Numbered from the stretch's first letter, positions 22,965-53,419 are shown. The stretch: DNA of 64,000 nt from an uncultured delta proteobacterium (GCA_963745835.1 CAVUZH010000022.1:352001-416000), one strand, 5' to 3'. The notes: generated by a model not told the origin, from the letters alone. A program made the numbers and translations.

Positions 22965-24317
22965 CTAATCGTCACGGATGTTAAGCTTCTCCATCTTTCG
23001 GTAGAGCGAGGATCGACTCAATCCGAGGAGCTCCGCTGCGCGAGTCCGGTCGCCGGCGGTGTCCCTTAGAACATTGGCAATGTGGCTTTTCTCATAGGAC
23101 TCGACGGCGACGCGCAAATTGTTTGCCGTGACATTTCGGTCGTTCTCGGGAATCTCAGATTCAGGCAAATGCTCCGGCGTAATCCATTCGCCGTCGCCCA
23201 AAATCATCGCGCGCTCGAGCACGTTATCCAATTCGCGGATATTGCCCTTCCAGGGGAGCGACATCAGAACTTTCATTGCCGAGTTATCCGCGCCCTTGTA
23301 CGCCTTCTTCATCTCCCGGTTGTGACGTGAAATCAGGTAATCGACCAGCAACGGAATATCTTCCCGCCGTTCTCTCAGCGGCGGTACCCAGACATGCACG
23401 ACATTCAAACGGTAAAAAAGATCTTCGCGAAACTTACCCTCGCTAGCCTCCCGTTCAAGGTCGCGATTGGTCGAAGCGATGATTCGCACGTTTAAGCGGA
23501 CCGGCTGGGTCGAGCCGACAGCTAAAACTTCCTTGGTTTCTATGGCGCGCAACAGCTTGGGTTGGAGAGTCAACGGCATCTCGCCGATTTCGTCGAGAAA
23601 AATGGTCCCGCCCTGAGCCTTTTGAAATAGGCCCTCTTGGGCATTGATGGCGCCGGTGAACGCGCCCTTGGCATGACCAAAGAGCTGGCTTTCGAGGAGA
23701 GTGTCGGGAATCGCGCTGCAATTCACCGGCAGAAATACTTTGTCCTTTGACAAGCTTTGCAAATGCAAGGTTCGGGCGACGACTTCTTTGCCGACGCCGC
23801 TCTCCCCGGTGATCAAGACGGTGGAATTGGTTGCCGCGACCTTTGAAACGATTTTAAAAATATCTTGAATCGGCTTGCTGCTCCCAACCAGACTGGTCGG
23901 CTCCGACGAACGGTTAATCTCACGCCGCAGCATCTCGACTTCCCAGACTAGATTCTTATGCTCGAGAAATCGGCCGACCTTCCTAATCACATCTTCAATA
24001 ACGATCGGCTTGAGGATGTAGTCTTGCGCTCCAAGACGAAAGGCTTCTACCGCCGTGTCCACTGACGAGAAGGCGGTCATCAGAATGACTAACGTTTGGG
24101 GCGAAATGCTCCGCACATGCTTTAAGACGCTGAGACCGTCGACACCGGGCATTTTTAGATCGGTTAAAACCAAATCGAAATCGATCTGGTTGATCGCGTC
24201 GATAGCGGCCTTGCCATCCTCAGCTTGGTGAACGGTATAGCCCTCTTCTTCCAATACGCTCGCGATATTTCGCCGAGGTACGGAATCGTCGTCACAAACT
24301 AAGATCGTCGCGCTCAT
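22965..24317 (-). CDS. NtrC/AtoC-family sigma54-dependent response regulator (REC-AAA+-HTH)
   Basis: Receiver LVCDDD/LTDLKMP/KP, GESGVGKE, ESQLFGHAKGAFTGA, FLDEIGE, WKGNIREL and Fis HTH AAELLGLSRSSLYRKM. Confidence 0.96.
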   Translation of the reverse strand: MSATILVCDDDSVPRRNIASVLEEEGYTVHQAEDGKAAIDAINQIDFDLVLTDLKMPGVDGLSVLKHVRSISPQTLVILMTAFSSVDTAVEAFRLGAQDYILKPIVIEDVIRKVGRFLEHKNLVWEVEMLRREINRSSEPTSLVGSSKPIQDIFKIVSKVAATNSTVLITGESGVGKEVVARTLHLQSLSKDKVFLPVNCSAIPDTLLESQLFGHAKGAFTGAINAQEGLFQKAQGGTIFLDEIGEMPLTLQPKLLRAIETKEVLAVGSTQPVRLNVRIIASTNRDLEREASEGKFREDLFYRLNVVHVWVPPLRERREDIPLLVDYLISRHNREMKKAYKGADNSAMKVLMSLPWKGNIRELDNVLERAMILGDGEWITPEHLPESEIPENDRNVTANNLRVAVESYEKSHIANVLRDTAGDRTRAAELLGLSRSSLYRKMEKLNIRDD

Positions 24318-24429
24318 CTCAGTGGAGTACTCGTTCTTTCTATGTTTCCAGATTCACAACAGCGCCAAACCGAAACGTTGGGATAGCTGCACGAGGAATA
24401 AAACAATAGCAACTATCCGTTTCGCGCGG

Positions 24430-24445
24430 CGCAAGATGCGTGCCG
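24430..24445 (-). promoter_or_regulatory. sigma54 -24/-12 promoter of the NtrC-family activator gene
   Basis: Minus strand CGGCACGCATCTTGCG (GG-N10-GC), about 110 bp upstream of ATG 24317. Confidence 0.75.
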
Positions 24446-24485
24446 TTCTTATACCCGTGCGGTTCCAGTTCGGCGAATCACATTC

Positions 24486-24532
24486 GTGTCTCGTTTGAGA
24501 CACACTACTCCGCTCGTGTCCCGAAAACAACA
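24486..24532. promoter_or_regulatory. Tandem palindromic upstream activator sites (TGT-N10-ACA)
   Basis: GTGTCTC-GTTT-GAGACAC (24486-24503, perfect inverted repeat) and TGTCCCGAAAACAACA (24517-24532), 30 bp apart, upstream of the sigma54 promoter. Confidence 0.65.
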
Positions 24533-24587
24533 CACAGACCTGCACTTAGTCCATTAGGGGGCTCGAAGAGGAACTAGAGAAATCGCT

Positions 24588-24950
24588 TCATCGCCTTCCT
24601 TGCTTGCCAGCTTGCACATCATCTCCGCGAGTAGTCCACCATCCAGCTATTCCACCCCATATAGCCAGAACTACTCCAAGGGCCATGAGGGTTAATCCGA
24701 TGGGTGGAATCATCAGGGCGAATCCACCGCCGATCACTAGTAGAGCCAATCCGGCGGCGACTAAACCAAAGGGACGGCGTTCACTTTGATCTGACGTTTG
24801 GCTTGGCGGAACCGGCGATCCTGTGGCGATATCGTTGATCAGGGACGAAGCATACGAACGGAGCTCGTGCCGCTGATCCGCCGGACTTCGTTCTATAGCG
24901 CGGCTGATTTCCTCGACTAACCGCTCTATCTCTTGTTCGGTACTTGACAT
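24588..24950 (-). CDS. Hypothetical protein with two C-terminal transmembrane helices
   Basis: 120 aa ORF with hydrophobic FGLVAAGLALLVIGGGF / IGLTLMALGVVLAIWGG, co-oriented with neighbours. Confidence 0.65.
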   Translation of the reverse strand: MSSTEQEIERLVEEISRAIERSPADQRHELRSYASSLINDIATGSPVPPSQTSDQSERRPFGLVAAGLALLVIGGGFALMIPPIGLTLMALGVVLAIWGGIAGWWTTRGDDVQAGKQGRR

Positions 24951-25012
24951 TCTGGAATCGCCCGGCGCCGAGCAGTCGTTCAGCTAATTGGGCGGGGCGA
25001 GGCAAATGCCTG

Positions 25013-25495
25013 TTAACTTCTCAATTCATTAGCGACCAGTCGCTGGCGCGAATTCCTGGCAATTGGCTGATACTCCGGAATAGCCGAAGACACACTATTT
25101 GCTTGCAGCTTACGCTCGCGCCATAGCTTGAGCCCGGTGCGAATGTAAGTAGGCTCGAGCCCGAGAGTGTCGCAAACGTTGACGAATGAAAAGAACCAAT
25201 GCCGGTCATCGGATGAAAACCATTCGTTTACGTCGCGAAACAGTCGAGTCGCGCGAGTACCTTTTTTTACCGCGTACTTTTGATACGTCCGAATGGCTTC
25301 ACGAAGGATCGCCTGCACTAGGATGAACTCTCCCATGACTTCCATTCGACGGTTCTGATTAGTCGCCGCATGAATGCCGAGGGGCATACTACTGATTTGA
25401 GATAAAATATCGTCGGAAAAATCCGCATCTTTGGATTCAAAACGAGTGCTGCCGGAAAACTCCCCCCGATCGCCACTTCCGAATGCCTGTTTCAT
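25013..25495 (-). CDS. Conserved hypothetical protein (AILxEA..YQ..EWF.SDD..W.FSF.NVC..LGL.P.YIR.GL type)
   Basis: GGAGG RBS before ATG 25495, own sigma54 promoter, and a motif pattern I recall from an uncharacterised family in Deltaproteobacteria-like genomes. Confidence 0.75.
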   Translation of the reverse strand: MKQAFGSGDRGEFSGSTRFESKDADFSDDILSQISSMPLGIHAATNQNRRMEVMGEFILVQAILREAIRTYQKYAVKKGTRATRLFRDVNEWFSSDDRHWFFSFVNVCDTLGLEPTYIRTGLKLWRERKLQANSVSSAIPEYQPIARNSRQRLVANELRS

Positions 25496-25537
25496 TACAT
25501 AATCCTCCACAACCAGTTTGATCTCGTCTCAAATGGC

Positions 25538-25553
25538 AGCAACGTACATGCCA
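25538..25553 (-). promoter_or_regulatory. sigma54 -24/-12 promoter
   Basis: Minus strand TGGCATGTACGTTGCT, about 40 bp upstream of ATG 25495. Confidence 0.8.
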
Positions 25554-25753
25554 CTTCTCCAACTGGGTGTAATTGCACGGCTTGACTATTTACCATTCTC
25601 CGATGTGGGACGACAATCATGAGCCAGTTATTTGAATGGGACGTACGCGGCCATGATTTTTACGAGCGACAACGCTGCGGAGCCAGCGGAGAAAATCGAA
25701 GCTCGGCGCACGCGCGCGGCGAGTAGAGTTGTAAGCGCTAAGTGCATGAGACA

Positions 25754-25769
25754 TGGCATGGGAATTGTT
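25754..25769 (+). promoter_or_regulatory. Possible variant sigma54 promoter (-12 GT instead of GC)
   Basis: TGGCATGGGAATTGTT about 35 bp upstream of ATG 25804. Confidence 0.45.
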
Positions 25770-25803: not shown

Positions 25804-26094
25804 ATGCCCATCGTAAGATTGATTTTCGTCAGGGTAGTGTCCGAGGAAGCAAAGAGCGCAGAACAGATCTGGAAAGAGAGTTGCGCGCCGTTGATGATTC
25901 AACAGCCTGGTTGCCTTTCGGAAAAACTGCTCAGGTCAAGTGACGATGCGGGAGAATTCATCTCCTATTCAGAGTGGAAGGATCAACAAAGTATCGATGC
26001 TTACCGGGTTAGTGACGCTCATGAAGAAATTAAGAAACATGCGCGACATCTGCACGGAGATCGACCGTCGGTCAAACGTTATGAGGTCGTATAG
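25804..26094 (+). CDS. Antibiotic biosynthesis monooxygenase (ABM) family dimeric alpha+beta barrel protein
   Basis: QQPGCL, EFISYSEW..SIDAY..SDAH. GGAGGAG RBS before ATG 25804. Confidence 0.85.
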   Translation: MPIVRLIFVRVVSEEAKSAEQIWKESCAPLMIQQPGCLSEKLLRSSDDAGEFISYSEWKDQQSIDAYRVSDAHEEIKKHARHLHGDRPSVKRYEVV

Positions 26095-26183
26095 CGGGAG
26101 GAGGCGCGATGCTCGACGCAAATACGTTCGATAGTCGGCCTAATACCGGTGATGGCCATGTGTCCTAAGCATCGCTTCTTCTG

Positions 26184-26228
26184 TGTCGCTTACGCGAAAG
26201 TCAGCCAGTCGTTGTCCCGTGTCCGAAA
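26184..26228. promoter_or_regulatory. Candidate tandem activator-binding sites
   Basis: TGTCGC-TTAC-GCGAAA (26184-26199) and TGTCCC-GTGT-CCGAAA (26213-26228), 29 bp apart, upstream of the sigma54 promoter at 26280. Confidence 0.5.
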
Positions 26229-26279
26229 CGGGTTGTGCCGCATCGGCCGAACATAAGTGGGATTGTCTCACGAAAAATG

Positions 26280-26295
26280 TGGCACGCAGCTTGCC
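26280..26295 (+). promoter_or_regulatory. sigma54 -24/-12 promoter
   Basis: TGGCACGCAGCTTGCC is a near-perfect consensus, about 50 bp upstream of GTG 26344. Confidence 0.85.
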
Positions 26296-26343: not shown

Positions 26344-27390
26344 GTGCGCCACAATAATGTATGGGCGATCGTTTTGGCTGGCGGTGAAGGCACGAGAGTT
26401 CGTGGTTTTCTCAAGCAGCTTTGTGGTGGAACCGGACTAAAGCAATTTTCGCCGATCATCGGCCGACGCTCGATGCTGCAGCACACCCTCGATCGGATGC
26501 AGCAGTTGGTGCCGGCCGAACGTACGGTGATAGTAGTGGGCGCGCATCAGAGTGGGGAAGCATTGCGCCAGCTCTCCCACTGGCCGCAAGAGAACATTAT
26601 CTACCAACCCGCCAATCGCGACACTGCGCCAGGTATCCTGCTGCCGTTTTCATACATTACCGACCGCGACCCGTCGGCCACCGTTATCGTCTCCCCTTCC
26701 GATCACTTCGTGCGCGATGAGAACCGCTTCATGGACGCAGTCGCGAGCGCGCTTGCGGATCTAAAGCGGTATTCCGACAAGATGATCCTGTTAGGCATGA
26801 CCCCCGAGCAGGGCCAAGAAACGGAGTATGGCTATATCCAACTCAAAAAGACTAGACGCCCAACCCTGACGCGACCGGTGGCGGGCTTTGTTGAAAAGCC
26901 TCCGCTGGCGCTTGCACGGCGTTTGATCAACCAAGGCGCGTTATGGAACACGATGGTTTTCACCGTCAGAGGCACTACCTTATGGCAGATGGTTCGGGAT
27001 ACGGTGCCGTCGCTGTACAATGCCTTTGGTTTGATTCAGTCGATGCTGGGCAGCATCCATGCGCCTGGCTTCATCCAACACATCTATCAGACGATTCCCA
27101 ACGTCAATTTCTCCTCTGATATCTGCGCACCTCTGGCGAAAAGGCTACGCGTTCTCGAGGTACCGAATGTCGGCTGGAGCGACTGGGGGACTGTTGCCAG
27201 TATCCTGCGCTCGCTGATTGAAATGGGCCAGCTCGAAACATTCCGAATGCGCCTTGAGGAAAGCCAGGTACACCCCTCCTGGTACGCCGCTTCATTGGCT
27301 GAAATCGATCCACAATCTAGGGATCTCGCGCCCGAAGCGGTATATTCTTCAATACGGACCGAAGTTGAGGCCTATCTATCTCCGGATTAG
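26344..27390 (+). CDS. Mannose-1-phosphate guanylyltransferase-like sugar-phosphate nucleotidyltransferase
   Basis: VLAGGEGTR, KQF, NRDTAPGI, PSDH, EYGYI, FVEKP and GWSDWG. No PMI domain. Confidence 0.85.
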   Translation: MRHNNVWAIVLAGGEGTRVRGFLKQLCGGTGLKQFSPIIGRRSMLQHTLDRMQQLVPAERTVIVVGAHQSGEALRQLSHWPQENIIYQPANRDTAPGILLPFSYITDRDPSATVIVSPSDHFVRDENRFMDAVASALADLKRYSDKMILLGMTPEQGQETEYGYIQLKKTRRPTLTRPVAGFVEKPPLALARRLINQGALWNTMVFTVRGTTLWQMVRDTVPSLYNAFGLIQSMLGSIHAPGFIQHIYQTIPNVNFSSDICAPLAKRLRVLEVPNVGWSDWGTVASILRSLIEMGQLETFRMRLEESQVHPSWYAASLAEIDPQSRDLAPEAVYSSIRTEVEAYLSPD

Positions 27391-27478: not shown

Positions 27479-27784
27479 TCAATCGACCACCATGTATATT
27501 TCACGGTTGGGCGACTGACGTAACAGCGGCGAAACCTTCTTGCTCCATTGTTGGAAGGTGGGTTCAGCCGTCACTTTACGGATCTGTTCTTCTAATATTT
27601 GCAACTCAGGCGCGTCCTGCGTAAACACCACATTGGGCGCGTCGGGTGAGGCAAAATGGGTGCGCAGTATTCTCGTATTTTCGCCACCTGCTTGCTTGAC
27701 GATATCACGCAAAGTTTTTAGCTCATGCTCTACTTCCCCCGTTTTACCGGGTAACGTAAGAAATGTCAGACGCGATACGTACAT
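27479..27784 (-). CDS. Small hypothetical protein, probable dimeric alpha+beta barrel (NIPSNAP/ABM-like)
   Basis: AGGAGG RBS before ATG 27784, with LPGKTGEVE...FQQWSKKVSPLL...REIY pattern. Confidence 0.65.
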   Translation of the reverse strand: MYVSRLTFLTLPGKTGEVEHELKTLRDIVKQAGGENTRILRTHFASPDAPNVVFTQDAPELQILEEQIRKVTAEPTFQQWSKKVSPLLRQSPNREIYMVVD

Positions 27785-27942
27785 CTCAAGATCCTCCTTG
27801 CTTGTTATCGAGCTCACAGCCCGCGGTTGGCGATCGAACCTGAGTATTGAATCGTTTGATGTCTGCCAGGGAGTTCCTCGATACATGAAACCGCATTTTT
27901 AGCCGAATTGCCTTTCGTCGAAGGGGAGAGATTTTATCCGTC

Positions 27943-29511
27943 TTAGGTTGAAAGCGCGCCGGCGGCCCTTTTAGCTTTTTTCTTGGCTGCCGGGATCCGC
28001 AGCTGGCGCAACGCCTTAGCCTCGATCTGGCGCACGCGCTCACGGGTAATCAAAAACATGTCGCCAATCTCCTGCAAGGTGTGCTCCCGGGTAAGGTCGA
28101 TACCAAACCGGTGCCGCAACACGGTTTGTTGCCGCGGATTGAGAATCGATAAAGATTGTCTGGTAACGGAACAAAGGTCGTTTTTTAAAAGTTCGTCCGC
28201 AGGGTCCTGAGCGCGTCGGTCCCTGGCGTAATGCTGCAGTGTTTCTTCGGAATTCTCGCCAAGCGGCGCCTGCAACGACAGATGCTCACTTGGCAGTGTA
28301 ATGATTCTTCGAATCTCCTGAAGGCTAAGGCCGGTATCAGCGGCCATATCTTCCGGCAGAGGGGTTCTGCCGAGCCTTTGCGCGAGGTCCTCGAAGCTGC
28401 GCCGCAACTTGCTCCTGGCTTCCACGATGTGAGCGGGAATCCGAATCATATGTCCGGAATCAACCATGCTGCGAGCGATAAATTGCCGTATCCACCAGGT
28501 GGCATAGGTGGAAAAACGATATCCCAGACGGTGGTCGAACTTCTCGGCCGCCCGCATCAAACCGATGTTTCCCTCCTGAATCAAGTCTGCGAGATCCACA
28601 TTGAAACGGCGGAACCGTTTGGCAATGCTGACCACCAAACGGAGGTTACCCTCGGTGAAAAGCTTTTTCGCCGTATCTACTTGTTGCTCACCGTCCGATA
28701 TTGCATCGACATGACGTTTGAGCTCTTCGGAACTCACACCGGTTTTTTGTTCGATCTCCTTTATTTCCCGCAGGCAAGCTTCTCGCTCAGCTCCAGCAGA
28801 GTCCGCCAGCAACCTTTCGCAGGCAATGGTGCGGCGCGCCGACTGCCGCAACGATTCGGCGATTACCGTGAGTTGCAGCCGTGTTAAACCGAGATCGCGG
28901 AGCATGCCGACGATTTTTTGGGCTTCCCTGGCGATAGTTCGCCGCAGTAACCAGCGCGCTCGTTGGGACGGTTTTTTTGCCCGCGCTTTGCGCTGCAGCG
29001 CTTCGATGTTTCTCAGGCGCCTCCTTATCGAGCGTACCGATTTCAAAAATGCGTCTCTCGTATCCACTTGGAATTTGACAGGCGCGCCACCGGTGTCGTC
29101 TTCTCTTGTCAGCCCCTCGATAACGTCAGACACGCGGATCTCGTCGTTTTGTACTTTGTCAGCCAAGTCGAGCACATGCCGGGAAGCTATCGGCGTAGAA
29201 AGGATGCTTTCGAGGATTTTGGATTCGCCGTCTTCCCTGAGTTTGGCAATGTCAATCTCTTGCTGATGCGTGAGCAACTGAAAAGAGCGAATTTCGTTCA
29301 AGTAGATCGATAAGGGCTCGTTGCCGGCAGTCGCCTCCGTTTCCTCCGCCTCCTGCCGCCCGTCATCGGAGACGCTATTCGACTCAGGCGCTGACGGCTC
29401 ACCCAGATCGACTTCCGCCTGATCCTCCTCGAGCTGATCTTCTGTGCGAGAAGGTTGCAGAGAGCTGGCAAGGGAAGCGCTGTTCGCGCGGAAAGCGGAC
29501 TCTAAATCCAT
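27943..29511 (-). CDS. Divergent RpoD-like (group 2-type) sigma70 factor
   Basis: Region 1.2 [10 protein letters not shown], long non-conserved region, region 2 [32 protein letters not shown] and region 4 [23 protein letters not shown]. Start reassigned to ATG 29511 (GAGGAG RBS). Confidence 0.92.
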
Positions 29512-29570
29512 CGTAATCAACTCCTCGGCAAAACAACAACACACAGGCAGGATGAGACGCGTTTGAGTAG

Positions 29571-29586
29571 GGCAACAAATATGCCA
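29571..29586 (-). promoter_or_regulatory. sigma54 -24/-12 promoter of the RpoD-like sigma gene
   Basis: Minus strand TGGCATATTTGTTGCC, 60 bp upstream of ATG 29511. Confidence 0.8.
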
Positions 29587-29723
29587 TTGTCTTTAGAAGA
29601 CAGAAGCCAGCTCTGTGATTCTCATGTAGCGCGGATCGGACAGGAAGCACTCTTGTTGTAGCGGCAGCAGGACGCATAACAGCGACCCAAAAAGTTGTCA
29701 TACGACAAACGAAGCATGGTTCG

Positions 29724-29739
29724 TGGCATATGCCTTGCT
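29724..29739 (+). promoter_or_regulatory. sigma54 -24/-12 promoter upstream of sucA
   Basis: TGGCATATGCCTTGCT, divergent from the promoter at 29571-29586. Confidence 0.78.
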
Positions 29740-29919: not shown

Positions 29920-32709
29920 ATGAACAGCAAGATCCAACCGGTCTCCAATTCAGCTAATCTGGCTTATATAGAAGCGCTTTACGCCGCTTACGTTGTCGAT
30001 CCATCGTCGGTAGATCAGGAATGGCGCACCTACTTCGCCGCGCTCAACGGCGATGCTTCCGACGGCCAAACCACGCCGATGCCATCGACCAGTGAAGGCA
30101 ATGGCGTCGTCGCGCATGCAAGTGGCTCGGCAAGCAGCGTCGCGTCTCGCGCCTCTACCTTACAAGAACAAGTCAACGAGATGATCAGAGCGTTTCGCAG
30201 TCTCGGGCATAAAGCGGCCAACATCGATCCGCTTGACTTATCCAGTGATCCGCAACCTTCTCTCGATCCGGAGTTTTATGGCCTCACCGTCGATGACATG
30301 AAGCGGCTTTTTCCCGGCGTTGGGTTGCCTTGGAACGGCCCGTTGACAATCGGCGAGATTGTCGAGCGTTTGCGTCGTACTTACTGCGGCGCCATCGGTG
30401 TGGAGTTCATGCATATCGACGAGCCGGCAGTTCGAAATTGGCTGCAGCGGCGCATGGAAGAAAGCCAGAATCATCTTGAGCTGAGTCACAAGCAAAAGCT
30501 GAGGATTCTCGCACGTCTCACTGACGCGGTCACGTTCGAAGAATTCGTCAGAAAAAAATTCGTTGGCGCCAAAAGCTTTTCACTGGAGGGCGCCGAAAGC
30601 CTCATACCGTTGCTGGATTTTGCCATCAATCACGCGGCGCGTGACGGTTTGCAGGAAATCGTCCTGGCAATGGCCCACCGCGGCCGCTTGAATGTCCTCG
30701 CCAACATCATCGGTAAGAGCCCGTGGGAGATTTTTCGTGAATTCGACGATCCTCTCACGGCCGAAAGTGGCGGCGGCGATGTCAAGTACCACCTGGGCTA
30801 CAGCAATGATTACGAATTGGCCTCCGGCGAGAAAATTCATCTTTCGCTTTGTTTCAATCCCAGCCATCTGGAATTCGTCAATCCGGTCGCCGTAGGTCGC
30901 ATGCGCGCCAAGCAGGACCGCGTCGGGGATCAGCAACACGGCCGTGGCATGGCGCTGCTGATTCATGGCGACGCGGCTTTCGCCGGCGAAGGAGTGACTC
31001 AGGAAACGCTAAACCTGAGTCAGCTGGAGGGCTATAGCATCGGCGGTGTGCTGCACGTGGTGATAAACAACCAAATCGGATTCACAACATCCCCCAAAGA
31101 AGCGCGTTCAAGCCGCTACGCTACGGATGTTGCCAAGATGTTGCAGGTGCCGATTTTTCACGTCAACGGGGATGATCCCGAAGCGGTCGCGCAGGTGGTC
31201 GGCTTGGCGATGGATTTCCGGCGCACGTTTAAACGGGATGCGGTGATCGATATGTATGGCTATCGCCGCTGGGGCCACAACGAGGGCGATGAACCGACGT
31301 TTACGCAACCGAGACTCTATCAAGCGATTAAGAAGCATCGGCCGGTGCGCGATCTCTATTTGGAAAAACTGCTGCGGGAAAAAATCATCGATGCCGGTGA
31401 GGCAAACCGGTTGGTGGCGCAGCGCCGGAGCGATCTGGAGAACGAATTGGCGCGGGCACGCAGCACCAGCGCCGTTCCCACGCCGCAGAGTTTTGGCAGC
31501 TTCTGGGCCGGGTACTCCGGTGGACTGGAACCGGCAGCGGCACCGGTCCCTACTGCGGTGAAGCGAGAACGGCTCTCGGCGTTGCTTGAAGCTCTGGCGC
31601 GCATCCCTAAAGATTTTCAGCCGCATCCAAAGATCAAACGCGGAATAGAGCTGCGTCAAGAAATGGCCCGTGGAACACGGCCCATCGACTGGTCCGCCGC
31701 AGAAGCTTTGGCGTTTGCGAGTTTAGCCGTCCAAGGAATCAGGGTACGCTTGTCCGGGCAGGACAGCGCGCGCGGGACTTTCAGCCATCGTCATGCGCTG
31801 CTGCGTGATTACCACGATGGGCACGCTTATGTTCCGCTGCAGCACCTGCAGCGCGGCCAAGCTCCGGTGGAGATCATTAACAGCCCGCTTTCCGAAACCG
31901 GTGTTTTGGGTTTCGAATATGGCTACAGTCTTGATTATCCCGAGGCTCTGACTTTGTGGGAAGCGCAGTTCGGCGATTTCGTCAATGCTGCGCAAGTCAT
32001 CGTCGACCAATTCATCACCAGCGCCGAAGAAAAATGGCGCAGGCTAAGCGGCTTGGTTTTGTTGCTGCCGCATGGCTTTGAAGGGATGGGACCGGAGCAC
32101 TCGAGCGCGCGCATCGAACGGTTTCTGCAGCTTTGCTCCAAGGATAATCTCCAGGTGGTTTACCCAACAACGCCAGCGCAATACTTTCATTGCCTGCGTC
32201 GACAAGTGCTGCGCAGATGGCGTAAGCCGATGGTTATTATGACTCCCAAAAGTTTGCTGCGCCATCCCGGGGCAGTCTCCAATCTCGACGCCTTGGCTGA
32301 TGGAGAATTTGAAACCGTCATCGGCGATCTTAGCGCGCGCCAAGATTGTCAGAAAATTCTCTTGTGCAGCGGCAAAGTTTATTATGATCTGGAGAAAAAG
32401 CGCGCCGAGATGAACCGCGATGACGTCGCCATTGTGCGCATCGAGCAGTTTTATCCAGTTCCGGAAGAGCGGCTGCGGGCGGTTCTGGAAGGCTATGCCG
32501 CTGGCACGCCGATAGTGTGGATTCAAGAAGAACCTCGCAACATGGGCGCCGCATGCTTTTGGCACCTTCAGCTCGGCAACAAGCTTTTCGATCGATTTCC
32601 GTTTTCGGTGGTCGCACGCGCTGCTTCCGCCAGCCCGGCAACCGGCTCGGCAAGCCGGCATCATCAGCAACAAACCGAGCTGCTGGCCGCCGCTTTCGGA
32701 AACCAGTAG
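29920..32709 (+). CDS. sucA: 2-oxoglutarate dehydrogenase E1
   Basis: [58 protein letters not shown] and GPEHSSAR. Confidence 0.97.
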
Positions 32710-32762
32710 CGAGCGCTAGTTTTAATGCTGTTTACGACCCGGTCAATTCCATAAGGTGGGCA

Positions 32763-34053: not shown

Positions 34054-34069
34054 TCAACGAGGATCAGAA

Positions 34070-35250: not shown

Positions 35251-35260
35251 GGATGACCAG

Positions 35261-38200: not shown

Positions 38201-38266
38201 CCGCGAACAACGTATCTGGCCCGGCTTAAAAATCCTAATCCCGACCTGGGAGCTAAGAAAAAGTGA
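35261..38266 (+). CDS. actB: Alternative complex III subunit B (molybdopterin-oxidoreductase-like + Fe-S domain)
   Basis: YWRSLEEL, Tat motif [52 protein letters not shown] and CTYC..CAQAC. Confidence 0.95.
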
Positions 38267-40182: not shown

Positions 40183-40218
40183 CGAATTGAACCGAGTAAG
40201 GCGTTCAGCGCTCAATCG

Positions 40219-45826: not shown

Positions 45827-46466
45827 GATACATGGCGCCGCGCTGGCGCATCAATTCGACGATCCCGAGCAGCAGGTTGAAGCGTCAACTCTCGGCATGT
45901 GGACGTTTCTGGCTACGGAGATCCTCTTTTTCGGCGGCTTGTTTGTCGCTTACATCGTCTATCGCCTGTCCTACCCGCAGGCGTTCGCCGCTGCCAGCCA
46001 TCATCTTGATATTATCCTTGGCACGATCAACACAGGAGTCCTGATCGGCAGCAGCCTGACAATGGTCCTGGCGGTTTACAGCGCGCAAATGGGCCGACCG
46101 CGTGGCCAAATCCTATTTCTTGCGGCAACGTTAGCGCTGGGTCTGGTTTTCCTCGGCATCAAGGGTGTTGAGTACCAGCACAAATTTCATGAGCACCTGG
46201 TTCCCGGCGCCGACTTTCAATTTAGTGACGCCGATCCACGTCACGCGGCGATCTTTTTCTCGCTCTATTTCGCTATGACCGGCATGCATGCTCTTCACAT
46301 GGTGATCGGCGCCGGGCTGATTATCTGGATGGCACTGCGCGCCTGGCGCGGAGAATTTTCCGCGAGCTATTATACTCCGGTGGAAATGGTCGGCCTCTAC
46401 TGGCATTTCGTTGATATCGTATGGATTTTTCTCTTCCCTCTGCTTTACCTGATTGGACGGCACTGA
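45819..46466 (+). CDS. coxC: Cytochrome c oxidase subunit III
   Basis: [25 protein letters not shown] and [14 protein letters not shown] start overlaps the coxA end. Confidence 0.93.
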
Positions 46467-46744
46467 TGGACTCCCACACAACAGCACGAAGAAACACTTA
46501 TTTTCTGGTATTCGGCGCGCTGCTGGTTCTTACCTTAGTCACCGCCGGAGTGGCCTTCATTAATCTCGGGCCGCTTAACACGCCGGTTGCACTGGGCATC
46601 GCCATGATCAAAGCGGCGCTGGTAATGATCTACTTCATGCATCTTAGACACAGCACTTTTCTGGTCCGTGTATTTGCCGGAGCCGGCCTTATATGGTTGC
46701 TGCATTTTATCACCTTCACTTTGAGTGATTATCTCACGCGCTGA
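46466..46744 (+). CDS. coxD: Cytochrome c oxidase subunit IV
   Basis: IAMIKAALVMIYFMHL and DYLTR. TGATG coupling with coxC. Confidence 0.9.
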   Translation: MDSHTTARRNTYFLVFGALLVLTLVTAGVAFINLGPLNTPVALGIAMIKAALVMIYFMHLRHSTFLVRVFAGAGLIWLLHFITFTLSDYLTR

Positions 46745-47622: not shown

Positions 47623-47812
47623 CTCACCGGAGATTGCTCCGTTGACGGGGGGCGCACTCATGAGCATCCATGATCTTTGAATGATCGATTGTCGTCCCAG
47701 TTCTGCATGCGAGCTTTGCGCGCTCGTACCGGCTTTGGGACGAGGAATCGGCGCTGGCGAGACACGCAAGGATAACGTGGGGCAAACATCGAGTGTGAAA
47801 ACACCGGCTCCG

Positions 47813-47828
47813 TGGCATATTTCTTGCC
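47813..47828 (+). promoter_or_regulatory. sigma54 -24/-12 promoter of the BON-gfo-hemerythrin-bfr gene run
   Basis: TGGCATATTTCTTGCC, about 40 bp upstream of ATG 47867. Confidence 0.8.
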
Positions 47829-47866: not shown

Positions 47867-48248
47867 ATGATCAGGAAATCACTGGCAGTGTTTATTGTTC
47901 CTGGCGATCGCAGCGGTTGCCTGCAACAGATCCGGTGATTCCGACAACAAAGCACCTACCCTCAGCGAAACGACAGTGATGGTGCGGAGCAACGCGGACC
48001 TCGAGAGTGCAGTTAAAGCGAAGTTCAAAGCCGACGAACAGTTGAGATCGGCGGATCTTGGCGTCAGCGCTAATTCGACTAACAATGAGATTACTCTCTC
48101 AGGGTCAGTTGAATCTGAGGCGTTGCGTTCCAAAGCAGTCGATCTGGCTAAGAGCGTCGATTCAGGATTGACCGTGAACGATCAAATCGAAGTAAAACCA
48201 AGTGGCCGCACCGCAACTGTTCTTCCAAACCAGCAGCACCATGGCTGA
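47867..48248 (+). CDS. BON (OsmY-like) domain lipoprotein, apparent 1-nt insertion in signal peptide
   Basis: DLESAVKAKF..ITLSGSV..AVDLA..VNDQIEV and lipobox AVAC. ATG 47867 with GGAG RBS gives MIRKSLAV-LLFLAIAAVAC if one T in GTGTTTATTG is removed. Confidence 0.8.
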
Positions 48249-49347
48249 ACGAGCTAAAATCAGATACGCCGTGGTCGGCCTCGGGCACATCGCGCAAGTT
48301 GCCGTCTTGCCTGCATTCGCTCACGCCCGCCAGAATTCCCAGCTCACCACCTTGGTGTCGGATGATCCGGTCAAGCATGAAAAACTCCGCAGTAAATACA
48401 AAATCCAACATAGTTACTCGTATGAGGAGTATGACAAGTGCTTGAGCAGCGGCGCTATCGATGCCGTGTATATCGCGCTGCCTAACAACCTCCACTGTGA
48501 CTTTACCGTGCGCGCGGCACGAGCCGGCATCCATGTTCTCTGTGAAAAGCCGATGGCGGTGACTGAAGATGACTGCGAGAAGATGATTTCGGCCGCCGAA
48601 AAGGGCGGAGTGAAGCTAATGATTGCCTACCGCCTTCATTTCGAGAAGGCCAATCTTGAAGCGGTCGAGATTGCGCGTTCCGGCAAACTAGGTGAGCCGC
48701 GATTCTTCTCGTCCGTGTTTGCAATGCAAGTAAAGGAAGATAACATTCGGCTGAAACGAGAGCTCGGCGGCGGCACGCTCTACGATATCGGCGTGTACTG
48801 CATCAATGCAGCGCGCTCCCTGTATCAGGCCGAGCCGTCGGAAGTCCACGCGTTCAGCATCAGCGGTAAAGACCCGCGCTTCGGGGAAATCGATGAGATG
48901 ACCGGCGCGGTTTTGCGTTTTCCCGAAGGGCGCTTAGCATCATTCACCTGCAGCTTTGGAGCCGCGGATGTATCGGCCTATGAGCTGGTCGGCACCGAGG
49001 GTAGCCTGCATGTTGAACCGGCTTACGAGTATGTTGGAGAGCTCAAGCACCGGCTCACCGTCAAAGGCAAAACCCGCGAACGGACTTTTTCCAGCCGTGA
49101 TCAATTTGCCCCGGAGCTAATCTATTTTTCCAACTGCATTATCAATAATGTCGATCCGGAACCATCCGGAGCGGAAGGATTGGCCGATGTGCGCGTTATC
49201 CGCGCACTATACCGTTCGGCGGAAATCGGCAGCGTCGTAGAACTGGAACCCTATATCAAACGGCAGAGACCGGGAATCGAACAGGAGATCAGCCGGCCTC
49301 CGGTAGACAAACCCGAGCTGGTAAACGTACAGAGCGCATCGGAGTAA
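48241..49347 (+). CDS. Gfo/Idh/MocA oxidoreductase (glucose-fructose oxidoreductase-like)
   Basis: YAVVGLGHIA, VYIALPN, HVLCEKPMA, IAYRLHF and GGGTLYDIGVY. Confidence 0.92.
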   Translation: MAERAKIRYAVVGLGHIAQVAVLPAFAHARQNSQLTTLVSDDPVKHEKLRSKYKIQHSYSYEEYDKCLSSGAIDAVYIALPNNLHCDFTVRAARAGIHVLCEKPMAVTEDDCEKMISAAEKGGVKLMIAYRLHFEKANLEAVEIARSGKLGEPRFFSSVFAMQVKEDNIRLKRELGGGTLYDIGVYCINAARSLYQAEPSEVHAFSISGKDPRFGEIDEMTGAVLRFPEGRLASFTCSFGAADVSAYELVGTEGSLHVEPAYEYVGELKHRLTVKGKTRERTFSSRDQFAPELIYFSNCIINNVDPEPSGAEGLADVRVIRALYRSAEIGSVVELEPYIKRQRPGIEQEISRPPVDKPELVNVQSASE

Positions 49348-49382
49348 AACAACCAATTGTCACTTAAGAATGGAGGAACGAT

Positions 49383-50035
49383 ATGCCTAATGCAACTCAG
49401 ATGATTCGTCAGGACCACAAGAAAGTCGAAGGGTTGTTTAAAAAATTTGAGCAGACCCAAGGGTCGCAAGCCAAACGCCGGTTGGCTGAGAATGCCATGG
49501 CTGAGCTCGAAGTTCATGCTGCTCTCGAGGAGGAAATCTTCTACCCCGCGGTGAAAAATGAAGTCGATGACGGCTCGTCGATGGTCCAGGAGGCGATCGA
49601 GGAACACCAAACCGTCAAACAACTGATCAGCGAGCTTAAGAGGATGGAAGAAGCGGACCAAGAATTCGAATCGCAATTCTCCCAGCTAATGGAAAATGTG
49701 CAGCACCATGTTGAGGAGGAAGAGAGCGAAATGTTGCCCAAGGTTGAAGAGAGCGAGCTCGATCTAAACTCGCTGGGTCAGCAGATGTCGCAAAGAAAGC
49801 AGGAAATGCAGAACGGCGGTCGCGCAACTAAGAAGGCATCGAGTGCCAGATCGCCGGAAGATCCAATGCCGGATCCCGCCGGAAACGCGCCGGTTCCAAG
49901 TCCACAGCAGCCCGGAAGTCCGCGGGCAAAAAGGCAGGTAGCAAGACTGCAGCGCGTAAGACCGGCAGCACGAAAAAGAGCACCGGGCGCAAGGCGACTA
50001 AAAAATCAGGAAGCCGCTCCAGGCGGCGAGCTTAA
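49383..50035 (+). CDS. Hemerythrin/HHE-domain protein with Lys/Arg-rich tail (apparent frameshift near 49852)
   Basis: QDHKKV, VHAALEEEIFYP, EEHQ and HHVEEEESEMLP. The shifted frame encodes AGRSNAGSRRKRAGSKSTAARKSAGKK...RSRRRA* ending at 50035; the as-read ORF ends at 50075. Confidence 0.82.
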
Positions 50036-50161
50036 AAAAGAGGCACATTCCGCTAGCACTGCCGCCGATAAATAGCGCCCCAAAGCGGACAATCATCGAC
50101 TTGCGCCGCAGCCGACAATTTGGCTATAAGCGGTGATGAGTTCACTGTGAAAGGAGGATTT

Positions 50162-50716
50162 ATGGCTGATAAGCCTTTTTTGACCGATATCAAGACGCTC
50201 CGAGAGCGGGCGCGTCAACACATCGAACAAGGCGCCATCACGCCGGGTTACAAAGCCGATCGCGACACCGTCGTTAAACTACTCAATGAAGCGTTAGCGA
50301 CGGAGATCGTGTGCACACTGCGCTACAAGCGACACTATTACATGGCTTCGGGAATCCATGCTCAGGCAGTGGCCCAGGAGTTTCTCGAGCACGCCAACCA
50401 AGAACAGGGACATGCCGATCAAATCGCCCAGCGTATCGTTCAGCTCGGCGGCGCTCCTGACTTATCGCCCGATGGCCTAACGACCCGCAGTCACGCAGAG
50501 TATGTCGAAGGCGAAACCCTCCTCGACATGATTAAAGAGGATCTGGTAGCCGAGCGCATTGCCATCGACAGCTATCGGGAGATGGCGCACTATATGGGCG
50601 AAAATGACTCCACCAGCCGTCGATTGATGGAAGAGATCTTGGCGGTCGAAGAAGAGCACGCTGACGATCTCGTCACACTATTACAAGAGTTGGGCACGGA
50701 TCACGGATCGAAATAA
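50162..50716 (+). CDS. Bacterioferritin/Dps-like ferritin-like protein
   Basis: LNEALATEIVCTLRY, EHANQEQGHAD, EDLVAERIAIDSY and EEEHADDL. AAAGGAGG RBS before ATG 50162. Confidence 0.9.
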   Translation: MADKPFLTDIKTLRERARQHIEQGAITPGYKADRDTVVKLLNEALATEIVCTLRYKRHYYMASGIHAQAVAQEFLEHANQEQGHADQIAQRIVQLGGAPDLSPDGLTTRSHAEYVEGETLLDMIKEDLVAERIAIDSYREMAHYMGENDSTSRRLMEEILAVEEEHADDLVTLLQELGTDHGSK

Positions 50717-50769
50717 AATACTAAACTGTTCAATCGGCTAGACAAACTCAACAGAAGAAAGGAACTACT

Positions 50770-51030
50770 ATGTTTGGATGGATTGGATGGATTATCTTCG
50801 GACTGATTGTCGGAATCGTCGGGAAGTTCTTGATGCCAGGGCGCGATCCCGGTGGATTTATCGTTACGATTCTGTTAGGCATTGCCGGCGCCTTGCTGGG
50901 CGGCTTCGTCGGGCGTGCTCTCGGGTTCTATCAAGAAGGGGAGCCAGCCGGCTTCATCATGGCGGTGATCGGTGCGATCATTTTGCTGGCGATCTATCGC
51001 GCGGTAGTCGGGCGACGGCGCACTGTTTAA
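50770..51030 (+). CDS. GlsB/YeaQ/YmgE family stress membrane protein
   Basis: WIIFGLIVG..LMPGRDPGG..TILLGIAGA..GG..AVIGAIILL. Confidence 0.92.
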   Translation: MFGWIGWIIFGLIVGIVGKFLMPGRDPGGFIVTILLGIAGALLGGFVGRALGFYQEGEPAGFIMAVIGAIILLAIYRAVVGRRRTV

Positions 51031-51198: not shown

Positions 51199-52152
51199 AT
51201 GCTCAAAATCGGATATAAGCTGTCGAGCGAGGAGCATCGGCCACAGGATTTAATCGCTCAAGCACGGCGAGCCGAACAATGCGGATTCAGGTTCGCGATG
51301 ATTTCCGATCACTTTCATCCATGGATCGATGCGCAGGGACAGAGCCCGTTTGTATGGCCGGTGATTGGTGCGATCGCTCAAGTGACCAGCAAACTGCTGC
51401 TAGGCACCGCAGTGACTTGTCCGACCATCAGAATACATCCCGGCATCATTGCGCAAGCGGCGGCTACGGCCGCTTCCATGATGCCGGGGCGCTTCATCCT
51501 CGGTTTGGGAGCAGGGGAAAATCTTAATGAACATATCTTTGGGGATCGGTGGCCGCCGGTGCGCATTCGCCATGCCATGCTTAAGGAAGCCGTGGAAATC
51601 ATCCGCTTGCTTTGGCGCGGAAAGCAGGAAAATTTCTCCGGCGAGTATTACCAGGTAGAGAACGCGCGCCTCTATACCTTACCGGATGAGCTGCCACCAA
51701 TTGCACTCGCCGCCAGTGGCTCAAACGCGGCCAAGCTGGCGGCAGAAATCGGCGATGGTTTTGTCGGCACTACCCCCAATGCGGAGATAATCGATGTTTT
51801 CAATCGCTCGGCCGGCAGCGGAAAACCACGATACGGCGAGCTCACCGTCTGCTGGGCCGAAAACCAAAATCAAGCTGAGGAGACCGCGTACAAGGAGTGG
51901 CCGATCTCAGGACTGAGTGGGCCGCTGATGTCCGAGTTGGCGCTGCCGAATTATTTCGAACAAGCAGCCACTATGATCGACAAAGGCGCAGTGGCAAAAA
52001 CTGTCATCTGCGGACCCGATCCCGAACGTCACTGGGAAGCAATTCAGGAGTATGAGCGCGCCGGTTACGATCATGTTTTTGTCCATCAGGTGGGTGCCGA
52101 TCAGGAAGGCTTTTTTCAATTCTACGAGCGAGAGATTCTGCCGCGGCTCTAG
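51199..52152 (+). CDS. LLM-class F420-dependent oxidoreductase, G6PDH-like family
   Basis: SSEEH, ISDHFHPW, TAVTCPT, GLGAGENLNEH and ENARLY. Confidence 0.88.
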   Translation: MLKIGYKLSSEEHRPQDLIAQARRAEQCGFRFAMISDHFHPWIDAQGQSPFVWPVIGAIAQVTSKLLLGTAVTCPTIRIHPGIIAQAAATAASMMPGRFILGLGAGENLNEHIFGDRWPPVRIRHAMLKEAVEIIRLLWRGKQENFSGEYYQVENARLYTLPDELPPIALAASGSNAAKLAAEIGDGFVGTTPNAEIIDVFNRSAGSGKPRYGELTVCWAENQNQAEETAYKEWPISGLSGPLMSELALPNYFEQAATMIDKGAVAKTVICGPDPERHWEAIQEYERAGYDHVFVHQVGADQEGFFQFYEREILPRL

Positions 52153-52446
52153 TTCGTGCCAGCATAATACTCGCCTGCAACCCTCGTCCTTGATGTAGAA
52201 GGTCTTGCGACTGAGTAACTTTATCAACTACTCGGTTCGGTTAATCTGCGCGGTTCCACACGCCCCTCGCGAGCTAAAGCGTCAAGCTCCTCAAGATTTC
52301 GGCGCAGCTTTGTCTCCGGCAATTGCCAATCTGAAAATACCGGCCCAATGTCGCTACCGTATCACGGGTGTGCTAACTCGCGGAGCGCGCCACCCTAGAT
52401 CAGCCACATTCGTTGCGCTTCTTGTTCAAACCTATCGTAAAACCTT

Positions 52447-52496
52447 CGTCCCGTTTGCGAAAGGCACTTGCTGCTGCTTTACCCGGATTCGGGACA
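52447..52496. promoter_or_regulatory. Candidate tandem activator-binding sites
   Basis: CGTCCC-GTTT-GCGAAA (52447-52462) and ACCCGG-ATTC-GGGACA (52481-52496), upstream of the sigma54 promoter at 52566. Confidence 0.45.
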
Positions 52497-52565
52497 TAAT
52501 TCGCCGTAAAGATCGGACCCTCGACGGGCATCATCGAGAATGCAACACTATTATTTCTATATACG

Positions 52566-52581
52566 TGGCATATCGGTTGCA
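52566..52581 (+). promoter_or_regulatory. sigma54 -24/-12 promoter
   Basis: TGGCATATCGGTTGCA, 50 bp upstream of ATG 52631. Confidence 0.82.
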
Positions 52582-52630
52582 CAAACGCTGACGGACGCAA
52601 CGCCACAAATCGTAGAAAGGAGAAAAACTG

Positions 52631-53419
52631 ATGCATCGAAAACTGTTGATTTTATCCGGTATCGTTTTTAGCGGTACGATTGCACTCAACGGCAATCTGG
52701 TATGGTCACAAACCAAAGGCTCGAGCGGGTCGCCGGGCCCTGCAGGACAGGAAAGTTCGGACAGACCGTCGAGCCAAAAGGGCAGCAGCGCGTCCTCGGC
52801 ACCATCAAGCAGTCAGGATAAAAGTGGTTCTGCTACAGGATCAAGCAAATCCGGTAGCGGGAGTCAGATGGATCGGGCAGGAGGCAGCGGCAGCATGAGC
52901 GGACAATCCAGCGCGCGAGGTATGGGCGGACAATCCAGCGAAAACATCAAGCAGGTTCAGGAAGCGCTAAAAAACAAGGGACACGATCCAGGTCCGGCAG
53001 ACGGAGTGATGGGACCCAAAACGCAGCAAGCTCTGCGTGCCTTTCAAAAAGAGAGTGGTATGCAGGCAACTGGACGCCTCGACGATAAGACCGCCAGCGC
53101 ACTTGGAGTGGATGCTTCGGGTAGCGGAAAAGGTTCCTCGTCCAGCGGAGCTTCGTCGAGCAGCGACAAAAGCTCGTCGGGAAGCGGAGCTTCTTCATCG
53201 GGGCGTAGCTCGTCGAGCGAGAAGTCATCCTCTGGCGGGTCCTCTACTAGCCCGTCAAGCAGTGGATCTTCCGGCAGCTCATTGGGCACCGGCGGTTCAT
53301 CGGGGAGCGACGCTTCGGGCAGCGGCTCATCTAAAAGCGGTTCCGGCGGATCGTCGAGTGGCGGCTCATCCAAGAGTGATTCCAGCAGCGGATCGAGCAG
53401 TGGCTCTTCCGGCAAATAA
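52631..53419 (+). CDS. Secreted peptidoglycan-binding (PG_binding_1) protein flanked by Ser/Gly-rich disordered regions
   Basis: Signal peptide and IKQVQEALKNKGHDPGPADGVMGPKTQQALRAFQ..TGRLD..T..ALG. AAAGGAG RBS. Confidence 0.9.
   Translation: MHRKLLILSGIVFSGTIALNGNLVWSQTKGSSGSPGPAGQESSDRPSSQKGSSASSAPSSSQDKSGSATGSSKSGSGSQMDRAGGSGSMSGQSSARGMGGQSSENIKQVQEALKNKGHDPGPADGVMGPKTQQALRAFQKESGMQATGRLDDKTASALGVDASGSGKGSSSSGASSSSDKSSSGSGASSSGRSSSSEKSSSGGSSTSPSSSGSSGSSLGTGGSSGSDASGSGSSKSGSGGSSSGGSSKSDSSSGSSSGSSGK

Follow-up and report, generated by a model that had tools for sequence, protein, structure and literature searches.

Sigma-54 promoter motifs in the window and across the genome

The stretch of DNA analysed here, referred to as the window, spans 64 kb (G000:C22:352001-416000) of a genome bin that is probably from a Candidatus Binatia-type bacterium (7.28 Mb, 25 contigs, completeness 97%). 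An initial annotation had proposed that positions 22965-53419 carry seven canonical -24/-12 promoters for sigma-54 (RpoN, an alternative sigma factor), and one variant, which tie an island of stress and dormancy genes to a single enhancer-binding protein. Genes were placed on a self-made map of the genome (6453 genes, 79% coding; 21% of the genome intergenic). The genes and predicted elements of the region are listed below (aa, amino acids; UAS, upstream activating sequence; ACIII, alternative complex III; G007 and G002, two genomes of the same genus).

15269-22782 (-): glgE, treS-mak and glgB (alpha-glucan from trehalose; Pfam), a possible read-through target of the activator promoter
22965-24317 (-): NtrC-family response-regulator enhancer-binding protein, 450 aa (Pfam REC, Sigma54_activat, AAA_lid and HTH_8)
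24431-24445 (-): predicted sigma-54 promoter of the activator gene, CGGCACGCATCTTGC; kept in G007 and G002
24487-24534: two tandem inverted repeats (24487-24504 and 24517-24534), TGTCYC-N6-GRGACA, candidate UAS; kept in G007 and G002
25539-25553 (-): predicted sigma-54 promoter of a 160-aa protein gene (25013-25495) and perhaps of a 120-aa membrane protein gene (24588-24950); kept in G007 and G002
25595-25612: degenerate candidate UAS of the 160-aa gene promoter
25754-25768 (+): variant predicted promoter TGGCATGGGAATTGT ahead of an ABM monooxygenase-like gene (25804-26094; Pfam ABM)
26182-26199 and 26213-26230: candidate UAS of the nucleotidyltransferase promoter
26280-26294 (+): predicted sigma-54 promoter of a sugar-1-phosphate nucleotidyltransferase gene (26344-27390)
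29572-29586 (-): predicted sigma-54 promoter of an extra RpoD-like sigma gene (27943-29544), then a 135-aa gene (27479-27886)
29625-29642 and 29657-29674: degenerate candidate UAS in the intergenic region shared by the sigma-70 gene and sucA
29724-29738 (+): predicted sigma-54 promoter of sucA; 19-nt block CGTGGCATATGCCTTGCTG identical in G002
29920-34169, 34594-41975, 42373-43236 and 43239-46744 (+): possible operon of sucAB, ACIII actA-F, SCO1 and caa3 coxBACD, respectively
47813-47827 (+): predicted sigma-54 promoter of the BON operon, with a degenerate candidate UAS at 47725-47742
47895-51030 (+): genes for BON (47895-48248), Gfo/Idh/MocA, hemerythrin, Dps-like ferritin and GlsB (Pfam)
51199-52152 (+): F420-type LLM oxidoreductase gene, perhaps also behind the BON promoter
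52479-52496: candidate UAS of the PG_binding_1 promoter, two mismatches
52566-52580 (+): predicted sigma-54 promoter of a gene for a secreted Ser/Gly-rich PG_binding_1 protein (52631-53419)

The motif GGCAYNNNNNTTGC (GGCAY-N5-TTGC) has eight matches in the window against 1.99 expected, a number reached in none of 100 shuffles. Seven are the elements listed by the initial annotation, at 24431-24444, 25539-25552 and 29572-29585 on the minus strand and at 26281-26294, 29725-29738, 47814-47827 and 52567-52580 on the plus strand; the eighth, 20437(-), lies inside the TreS-Mak coding frame, so the remark that the first 22 kb hold none is true of intergenic sites only. The variant element at 25754-25768(+) has GT instead of GC at -12. 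In each of the seven, the GG and GC elements are 10 nt apart in a TGGCAC-N5-TTGCW-like consensus. All seven are intergenic and co-oriented with the downstream gene, and across the window the start codon follows the 3' end of the motif at 27-181 nt (113 nt for the activator gene, 28 or 43 nt for the 160/165-aa protein gene, 35 nt for the ABM gene, 49 nt for the nucleotidyltransferase gene, 27 or 60 nt for the sigma-70 gene, 181 nt for sucA, 67 nt for the BON gene and 50 nt for the PG-binding gene). Four sites share the start TGGCATAT (29572-, 29724+, 47813+ and 52566+). The positions of the seven elements and the variant, their intergenic and correctly oriented placement near start codons, the start shared by four of them and the gene families named as their targets (by Pfam) are therefore as first described.

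The genome contains one rpoN gene (Sigma54_DBD match, 210 bits), the presence of which the initial proposal required, together with 33 Sigma54_activat matches, about 24 of them full-length; tblastn with the window activator returned 26 genome matches at half length or more. TGGCAY-N5-TTGC is intergenic in 103 of its 112 genomic copies and GGCAY-N5-TTGC in 148 of 227, compared with 22-46 intergenic copies out of 139-195 for the control spacers N3, N4, N6 and N7. The intergenic bias and the specificity for the N5 spacing indicate that GGCAY-N5-TTGC is a real signal between genes, present in roughly 100-150 copies. Sites that begin with TGGCATAT are common among them (26 of the 148 intergenic sites); as a possible regulon signature this start was rejected (7/22 vs 34/119, p = 0.8), being not linked to the enhancer class described below.

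Conservation was followed in G007 and G002, where the activator is 96% identical and the neighbouring proteins are 53-85% identical. The motif is kept upstream of the activator, 160-aa protein and nucleotidyltransferase genes in both genomes and upstream of the sigma-70 gene and sucA in G002, so that five of the seven promoters persist in diverged relatives. In the alignments the promoter blocks stand out against poorly alignable flanks; a 15-nt block at the nucleotidyltransferase promoter is identical in both, and the block ahead of the ABM gene is kept as TGGCAY-N5-TTGT or TTGG. The motif also stands ahead of nucleotidyltransferase homologues in other genera (L113, L118, L120 and L127). Judged by sequence statistics and conservation, the seven window elements are real sigma-54 promoters, and the eighth, variant element probably is one as well.

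The region 22965-53419 contains 4302 intergenic bases, for which 0.42 sites are predicted and seven are seen (Poisson 3e-7), a 17-fold density over the intergenic background. When the whole genome is considered, 3.3% of 2000 random intergenic placements give at least seven sites in some 31-kb span, a null that is inflated by some long uncalled stretches in the gene map. The region is the second densest 31-kb span of the genome, since a span at 389 kb of contig C14 holds eight sites. The proposed local enrichment thus stands with respect to background, but the cluster is not unique.

The densest cluster, G000:C14:389000-459000, counts eight sites over 31 kb and 13 over about 70 kb. It contains two activator genes, the receiver-less C14:392146 and C14:414550, and its first genes include two PaaA/PaaC-like genes, a Usp gene and an ABC binding protein gene; TGTCYC-N6-GRGACA is missing from most of its promoters. 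To the right of the window, eight further intergenic motifs lie at 422-467 kb (G000:C22:416001-476000; L220-L222), ahead of an epimerase gene, a GT4 gene, an Anabaena-sensory-rhodopsin-transducer-like gene and several genes without a family, in a stretch that carries on the glycosyltransferase cluster at window positions 53573-63905. On contig C25, identical 26-nt promoter stretches at 9644(-) and 12009(+) flank an activator gene (C25:10552-11049) in inverted orientation, which looks like an inverted duplication. Identical activator matches (245.3 bits, 687-aa frames) and promoter strings at C12:2835-6288 and C19:543039-546493 point to an assembly duplication or a repeated element, a matter of relevance for counts in a bin with contamination. 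An activator gene at C22:9424-10324 is split over two frames (profile positions 2-91 and 84-167) and is probably a pseudogene or a frameshift error.

A candidate enhancer and a candidate activator

At the activator's own promoter, two inverted repeats of the form TGTCYC-N6-GRGACA have their centres some 51 and 81 nt before the -24 GG. Both are kept in G007 and G002 amid diverged flanks (TGTCTC-AGTAAA-GAGACA and TGTCTC-GTTTTT-GCGACA). The pattern was taken from this locus alone, and the genome was then scanned with it. At one mismatch or fewer, 26 copies were found, nine of them 30-300 nt upstream of a sigma-54 promoter and eight of these nine at loci other than the activator gene. The 148 upstream zones make up about 0.55% of the genome, from which roughly 0.14 copies would be estimated by chance; with spacings of 2, 3, 5 and 7-10, there is no promoter-linked copy at this threshold. 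Allowing two mismatches, the N6 site precedes 30 of the 141 promoters outside the window, compared with 1-11 of 141 for other spacings, and the site centres are most frequent 45-65 nt before the GG. When the position was restricted to 44-66 or 76-94 nt, windows that were picked after the data had been seen, a site with at most three mismatches was present at 7/7 window promoters and 27/141 others, while control spacings gave 0-4/7 and 3-16/141. Sites at four to five of the window promoters are degenerate, with mismatches at 3 of the 12 positions.

The relatives provided further support. Degenerate sites occur at aligned positions in G002 and G007, and the intergenic region between sucA and the sigma-70 gene of G002 has a site with a single mismatch. 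At one mismatch or fewer, G002 and G007 contain 23 and 18 sites, compared with 13 and 3 for a reversed control pattern. Among the 17 sites in 16 loci that were examined, of the 41 found, eight lie 30-300 nt from a sigma-54 motif in the same orientation, and five of these eight are at loci other than the activator gene. Around activator relatives in other genera, the N6 site (two mismatches or fewer) is present at 6 of 48 promoters and other spacings at 0-2 of 48. An exact-site scan of five other-genus genomes returned three sites, all in G019 and one beside a sigma-54 motif. Taken together, spacing statistics and conservation indicate that the TGTCYC-N6-GRGACA type is linked to sigma-54 promoters genome-wide.

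A count of GGGACR/GAGACA was dropped as evidence because it was circular. Exact-dyad enumeration yielded two leads only, TGTA-N10-TACA (5 vs 0.24 expected) and TCTC-N6-GAGA (5 vs 0.76). The first of these has the TGT-N12-ACA frame in common with TGTCYC-N6-GRGACA and may be the site of another activator.

The window activator is complete, with a REC domain, an AAA+ domain carrying GAFTGA and a helix-turn-helix (HTH), as in group I of the NtrC family; D53, the Walker A sequence GESGVGKE, GAFTGA and the Walker B sequence DEIGE could be read directly. It scores below every NCBIfam equivalog cut-off (AtoC 447 bits, cut-off 714; NtrC 409, cut-off 559; ZraR 386, cut-off 760), and its recognition helix SRSSLYRKMEKL is unique among the activators of the genome. 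No kinase gene adjoins the activator gene, and since the receiver domain is the sole input, the signal is not readable from the protein. Its own promoter carries two conserved sites, and site-bearing promoters lie densely around its gene. These two observations make the window activator the best candidate for the site, and we infer on these sequence grounds that it may be the one regulator to which the site-bearing promoters belong.

Predicted target genes

The sigma factor encoded at 27943-29544 (533 aa) contains Pfam sigma-70 regions 1.2, 2, 3 and 4. On the RpoD model it scores 362 bits, below the cut-off of 555, whereas a copy on C24 scores 748 and a third, on C15, 432; the C24 protein is therefore the true RpoD and the window protein an extra RpoD-like sigma, in agreement with its first description as an extra sigma70. 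It is not an RpoS orthologue (rpoS_proteo, 234.5 bits, cut-off 378.7). A predicted sigma-54 promoter thus lies directly upstream of a non-housekeeping gene of the sigma-70 family, the arrangement of a sigma cascade.

In the sucA operon, ActB, C, D and E of ACIII are recognisable, and caa3 subunits I-IV and SCO1 were confirmed by Pfam. The genome has three haem-copper oxidases, and sucA, sucB and all ACIII genes are single-copy, which identifies sucAB and ACIII as part of the main tricarboxylic acid (TCA) cycle and respiratory module and not as a spare copy for dormancy; the earlier assignment of these housekeeping genes to a dormancy set is accordingly not supported. In the BON operon, GlsB corresponds to Pfam Transgly_assoc, the ferritin is Dps-like, and the hemerythrin weakly resembles the PA2171 'persister' family (92 bits, cut-off 190). 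The oxidoreductase at 51199-52152 is luciferase-like and falls in the F420-dependent NCBIfam family TIGR03557. Three genes elsewhere that are paralogous to the PG_binding_1 gene are also behind sigma-54 motifs (L145, L176 and L185). The glgE-treS-mak-glgB block begins 182 nt downstream of the activator gene in the same direction, and the order activator-GlgE-TreS-GlgB is retained in G007 and G002; an HSP20 gene lies beyond GlgE, TreS-Mak and GlgB on the minus strand. Pfam also places an EEP nuclease-like gene in the region.

The genes at 24588-24950 and 25013-25510 (-) have no Pfam family, and the 160-aa protein (25013-25495) belongs to no Pfam or NCBIfam family. Its homologues are recorded as 'hypothetical protein' and come only from Candidatus Binatia-type metagenome records; its atlas clusters are unnamed and are commonest in Binatota. 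Its AlphaFold model is poor (pLDDT 54, 16 sequences), with a helical core at 50-134. The protein has six paralogues in the genome and is repeatedly found behind sigma-54 promoter motifs, also in other genera (L127 and L120).

Beyond the window, the first gene was annotated for 95 of the 141 promoters, 80 chosen by motif quality and 15 for bearing the site. The site class comprises 48 of the 148 promoters. Outside the window its first genes include stress-type families (two CsbD, a long catalase, BON, two hemerythrins and DUF4142), envelope proteins (holin-X-like, BrkB, two PG_binding_1 and two RlpA-like DPBB), sugar enzymes (two GH2-GT2 fusions, GT4 and an epimerase), a PAS-AlgX protein, a GAF-type activator, dodecin, YCII, SnoaL and DUF2391, and about a dozen genes without a family. 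With the window included, the site-bearing stress-type set amounts to two CsbD, catalase, two BON, three hemerythrins, Dps, GlsB and DUF4142. Envelope-related targets include PG-binding, SLT-LysM and RlpA-like proteins, porins, glycosyltransferases and MlaC. Behind site-less promoters lie genes for P-II, Amt, ABC binding proteins, kinases and a porin, as well as PaaA-like genes and two SLT-LysM genes. Since about 30-40 sigma-54 promoters on other contigs also have this site type ahead of them, the regulon would be dispersed and not an island.

Loci of activator relatives in other genera show recurring neighbours. Beside a 72%-identical activator in one of them (L113, G024:C40:176001-196000), 11 sigma-54 motifs lie within 20 kb, and sigma-54-dense surroundings of this activator family therefore appear to be conserved beyond the genus. 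Relatives with 61-64% identity lie tail-to-tail with a homologue of the window sigma gene in G014, G021, G013, G010 and the public metagenome-assembled genome (MAG) L002. In G020, promoter, activator, actA and actB follow one another in one direction (L115), and in G019 the activator lies near coxCD and sucAB (L119). A search for related loci mostly returned paralogues of 38-48% identity from many phyla; only L002 (61%, adjoining a sigma-70 gene) was informative, and the best outside locus is a Binatia MAG.

An Rfam search of the whole window returned no family, and scans for sigma-70 promoters and terminators at 22.8-35.4 kb and 41.8-53.7 kb did not exceed shuffled sequence. The GC profile (0.51-0.60 over the window, 0.54 for the genome) gives no sign of a foreign island. 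At the left end of the window, genes for a Rieske oxygenase, an amine-oxidase/phytoene-desaturase-like flavoprotein and a lycopene cyclase stand in a row (1-3328, +), likely a carotenoid-modification cluster; pigment genes have been reported for Binatota. At the right end, three tandem paralogous Glyco_trans_1_2 genes (53573-56867, -; 357-379 aa) are followed by GT4, Gfo/Idh/MocA, histidine phosphatase, HAD, GNAT, methyltransferase and nucleotidyltransferase genes. The group resembles a glycan or compatible-solute cluster and, within the window, lacks a sigma-54 motif of its own.

Alternative readings and comparison with known systems

On balance, and with considerable reserve, we favour the reading that the real sigma-54 promoters of the window are the local hub of a genome-wide regulon sharing one enhancer type in this Candidatus Binatia-type bacterium. 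In such a regulon, a histidine kinase would phosphorylate the receiver domain of the NtrC-type activator (22965-24317), which would oligomerise on the 18-bp TGTCYC-N6-GRGACA repeats (centres about 50-60 and 80-90 nt ahead of the -24 GG) and, through its GAFTGA loop, spend ATP on opening the closed complex of the sigma-54 holoenzyme. Predicted outputs would be the activator's own gene (positive feedback), perhaps glgE-treS-glgB, the extra RpoD-like sigma (a sigma cascade), the Binatia-specific 160-aa protein, the sugar nucleotidyltransferase, the BON-Gfo-hemerythrin-Dps-GlsB operon, the peptidoglycan-binding protein and, in this genus, the only sucAB-ACIII-caa3 operon. The identity of the binding activator, the signal and an output in 'general stress' or 'dormancy' are all inferred. 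Of the sigma-54 stress programme first proposed, the real promoters, rpoN, a complete activator and an extra sigma stand and are joined by a shared enhancer-like site; the clustered island does not, as the enhancer type recurs before about 30-40 promoters on other contigs and other dense clusters exist.

Several observations count against a single regulon of this kind. The bin has an estimated contamination of 9.3% and the gene map is crude. At the window promoters, the variant included, only three of eight have a site with two or fewer mismatches in 12, the position windows were set post hoc, and without a position requirement sites with up to three mismatches also precede 62 of the 141 other promoters. 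The exact site is absent from four of the five other-genus genomes, in a scan that is uninformative at zero mismatches. Unbiased searches gave little: k-mer enrichment in six upstream regions ranked CGTCCCA/GGGACGA first, borderline after multiple testing, and exact-dyad enumeration over the 141 non-window upstream regions (about 19,000 tests) produced nothing significant. The Gfo gene of the BON operon, the anchor for comparing the BON and PG-binding promoters between genomes, was not found at E <= 1e-60 in G002, G007, G024, G019 or G014. The receiver-less paralogue C14:392146 has a recognition helix, SLSSLYRKIEEL, that is the nearest in the genome to that of the window activator, the other activators differing more, and it could bind the same site. 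With regard to the stress content, Usp, DUF2382, glycine zipper and SRPBCC genes are stress-like and also lie behind site-less promoters, so that the stress flavour is enriched in, and not exclusive to, the site class; moreover, none of the targets that adjoin the site in G002 and G007 belongs to the classic stress genes (PAS, MobA-like transferase, TAT-signal protein, BNR and cytochrome c are found there).

A rival possibility, doubtful in our estimate yet the strongest of the competing explanations, is that the promoters are real and several of the roughly 25 activators serve them, in a sigma-54-rich genome in which the weak repeats at four to five promoters arise by chance; the cluster would then mirror that richness and not a single programme. 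The 148 intergenic motifs, the 24-26 or so activators, the other dense clusters on C14 and on C22 beyond the window, the abundance of three-mismatch sites, the non-significant unbiased searches and the 3.3% of random placements that reach seven sites in some 31-kb span would all fit such an arrangement. It is less easily reconciled with the positioned N6 site, which is found at every one of the seven window promoters and at about a fifth of the others and which the control spacings do not reproduce, with the degenerate sites aligned in G002 and G007 and the single-mismatch site between sucA and the sigma-70 gene of G002, or with the sigma-54-dense loci of activator orthologues in other genera, such as L113.

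We regard it as unlikely that the activator is mainly a regulator of respiration, energy or redox state, adjusting TCA cycle and aerobic chain to the supply of oxygen or energy, with stress genes secondary. Relatives of the activator are linked to actA-actB in G020 and to coxCD and sucAB in G019, the only sucAB and ACIII copies lie behind a predicted sigma-54 promoter conserved in this genus, and hemerythrins, SCO1 and cytochrome c are among the targets. However, sucA in G019 (two copies) and in G024 has no co-oriented motif within 1.5 kb upstream, which also tells against a sucAB output as a general feature of the favoured regulon: in the genomes compared, the predicted sigma-54 promoter of sucAB is seen in this genus only. 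Furthermore, most site-bearing targets are envelope or stress-type proteins, and the receiver domain as sole input gives no indication of an oxygen or energy signal. Finally, that the motifs are chance matches or another type of repeat is highly improbable: the in-frame match at 20437(-) shows that chance copies occur, but the intergenic bias, spacing specificity, orientation, distance to start codons and conservation, together with the presence of rpoN and activators, speak against it.

A further step from the favoured regulon, which we put forward only tentatively, is that Binatia may run their stress or resting response through sigma-54 and one autoregulated NtrC-type regulator with about 35-48 direct promoters, amplified by the RpoD-like sigma. 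If true, these promoters would cover CsbD, catalase, Dps, BON, hemerythrins, envelope proteins and glucan/trehalose enzymes, and in this genus the regulon would even take over the cell's only 2-oxoglutarate dehydrogenase-ACIII-caa3 operon; a sigma-54 promoter ahead of the only TCA/ACIII/caa3 operon is unexpected. Because a sigma-54 promoter stays silent without its activator, such a regulon would switch tightly between on and off, as befits a resting state. For an abundant uncultured lineage of soil and sediment, the analysis offers concrete wiring: a sigma, a candidate activator, an 18-bp site, about 40 candidate promoters and a downstream sigma. To our knowledge no general-stress sigma has been described for Binatia. 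A literature search found no paper on sigma-54 (RpoN) in Binatota and no sigma-54 general-stress regulon of this content, and the main text of a 2025 cross-phylum sigma-54 survey (PMC12316311) makes no mention of Acidobacteriota, general stress, cytochrome, Dps or trehalose.

The kind of system, an activator with its sigma-54 regulon, is familiar, which tempers its value. The window activator resembles NtrC of NtrB-NtrC in its REC, AAA+ (GAFTGA) and Fis-type HTH domains, in having its own gene among the predicted targets and in the tandem inverted-repeat sites roughly 100 nt upstream of a -24/-12 promoter, and the sigma-54 enhancer mechanism of NtrB-NtrC at glnAp2 of enteric bacteria is textbook knowledge. 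It differs from NtrC in that it falls below the NtrC, AtoC and ZraR cut-offs, its site TGTCYC-N6-GRGACA is a different one, no kinase gene adjoins it, and the P-II and Amt promoters belong to the site-less class. PspF/psp is a sigma-54 module for stress. PexR of Myxococcus xanthus is reported to control ahpC and katB (PMC12754779). As in both of these, an enhancer-binding protein would here preside over stress-defence genes, including a catalase; unlike PexR and PspF/psp, which appear small and single-purpose, it would act at about 35-48 promoters that include those of a sigma factor and of respiratory genes.

In Borrelia burgdorferi, according to two reports (PMC2940757, PMC3037356), the NtrC-like activator Rrp2 and sigma-54 directly transcribe the gene of an alternative sigma factor, RpoS, through which the response is then broadened. 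The predicted sigma-54 promoter on the gene of a second, sigma-70-family sigma is the shared feature. Here, in contrast, the downstream sigma is a 533-aa RpoD-like protein and not RpoS, the host is free-living and uncultured, and sigma-54 would also drive dozens of effector genes directly. The many envelope-related targets are in line with the proposal of Francke et al. 2011 (PMC3162934) that sigma-54 is a 'controller of the bacterial exterior'.

The gene families encountered here overlap with those of the general stress regulons: CsbD, KatE-type catalase, Dps, OsmY/BON, GlsB/YmgE, trehalose/glucan enzymes, DUF4142, small heat-shock proteins and Usp are shared with these. General stress regulons are run by RpoS in Gammaproteobacteria, SigB in Bacillota and EcfG in Alphaproteobacteria, sigma-70-family sigmas that are controlled by proteolysis or partner switching, and outside these models the control of general stress and resting genes in most bacterial phyla is unknown. 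Unlike theirs, the promoters predicted here are of the sigma-54 type and would need an ATP-driven activator. If the tentative stress reading holds, Binatia would have a fourth, mechanistically different solution to general stress beside RpoS, SigB and EcfG.

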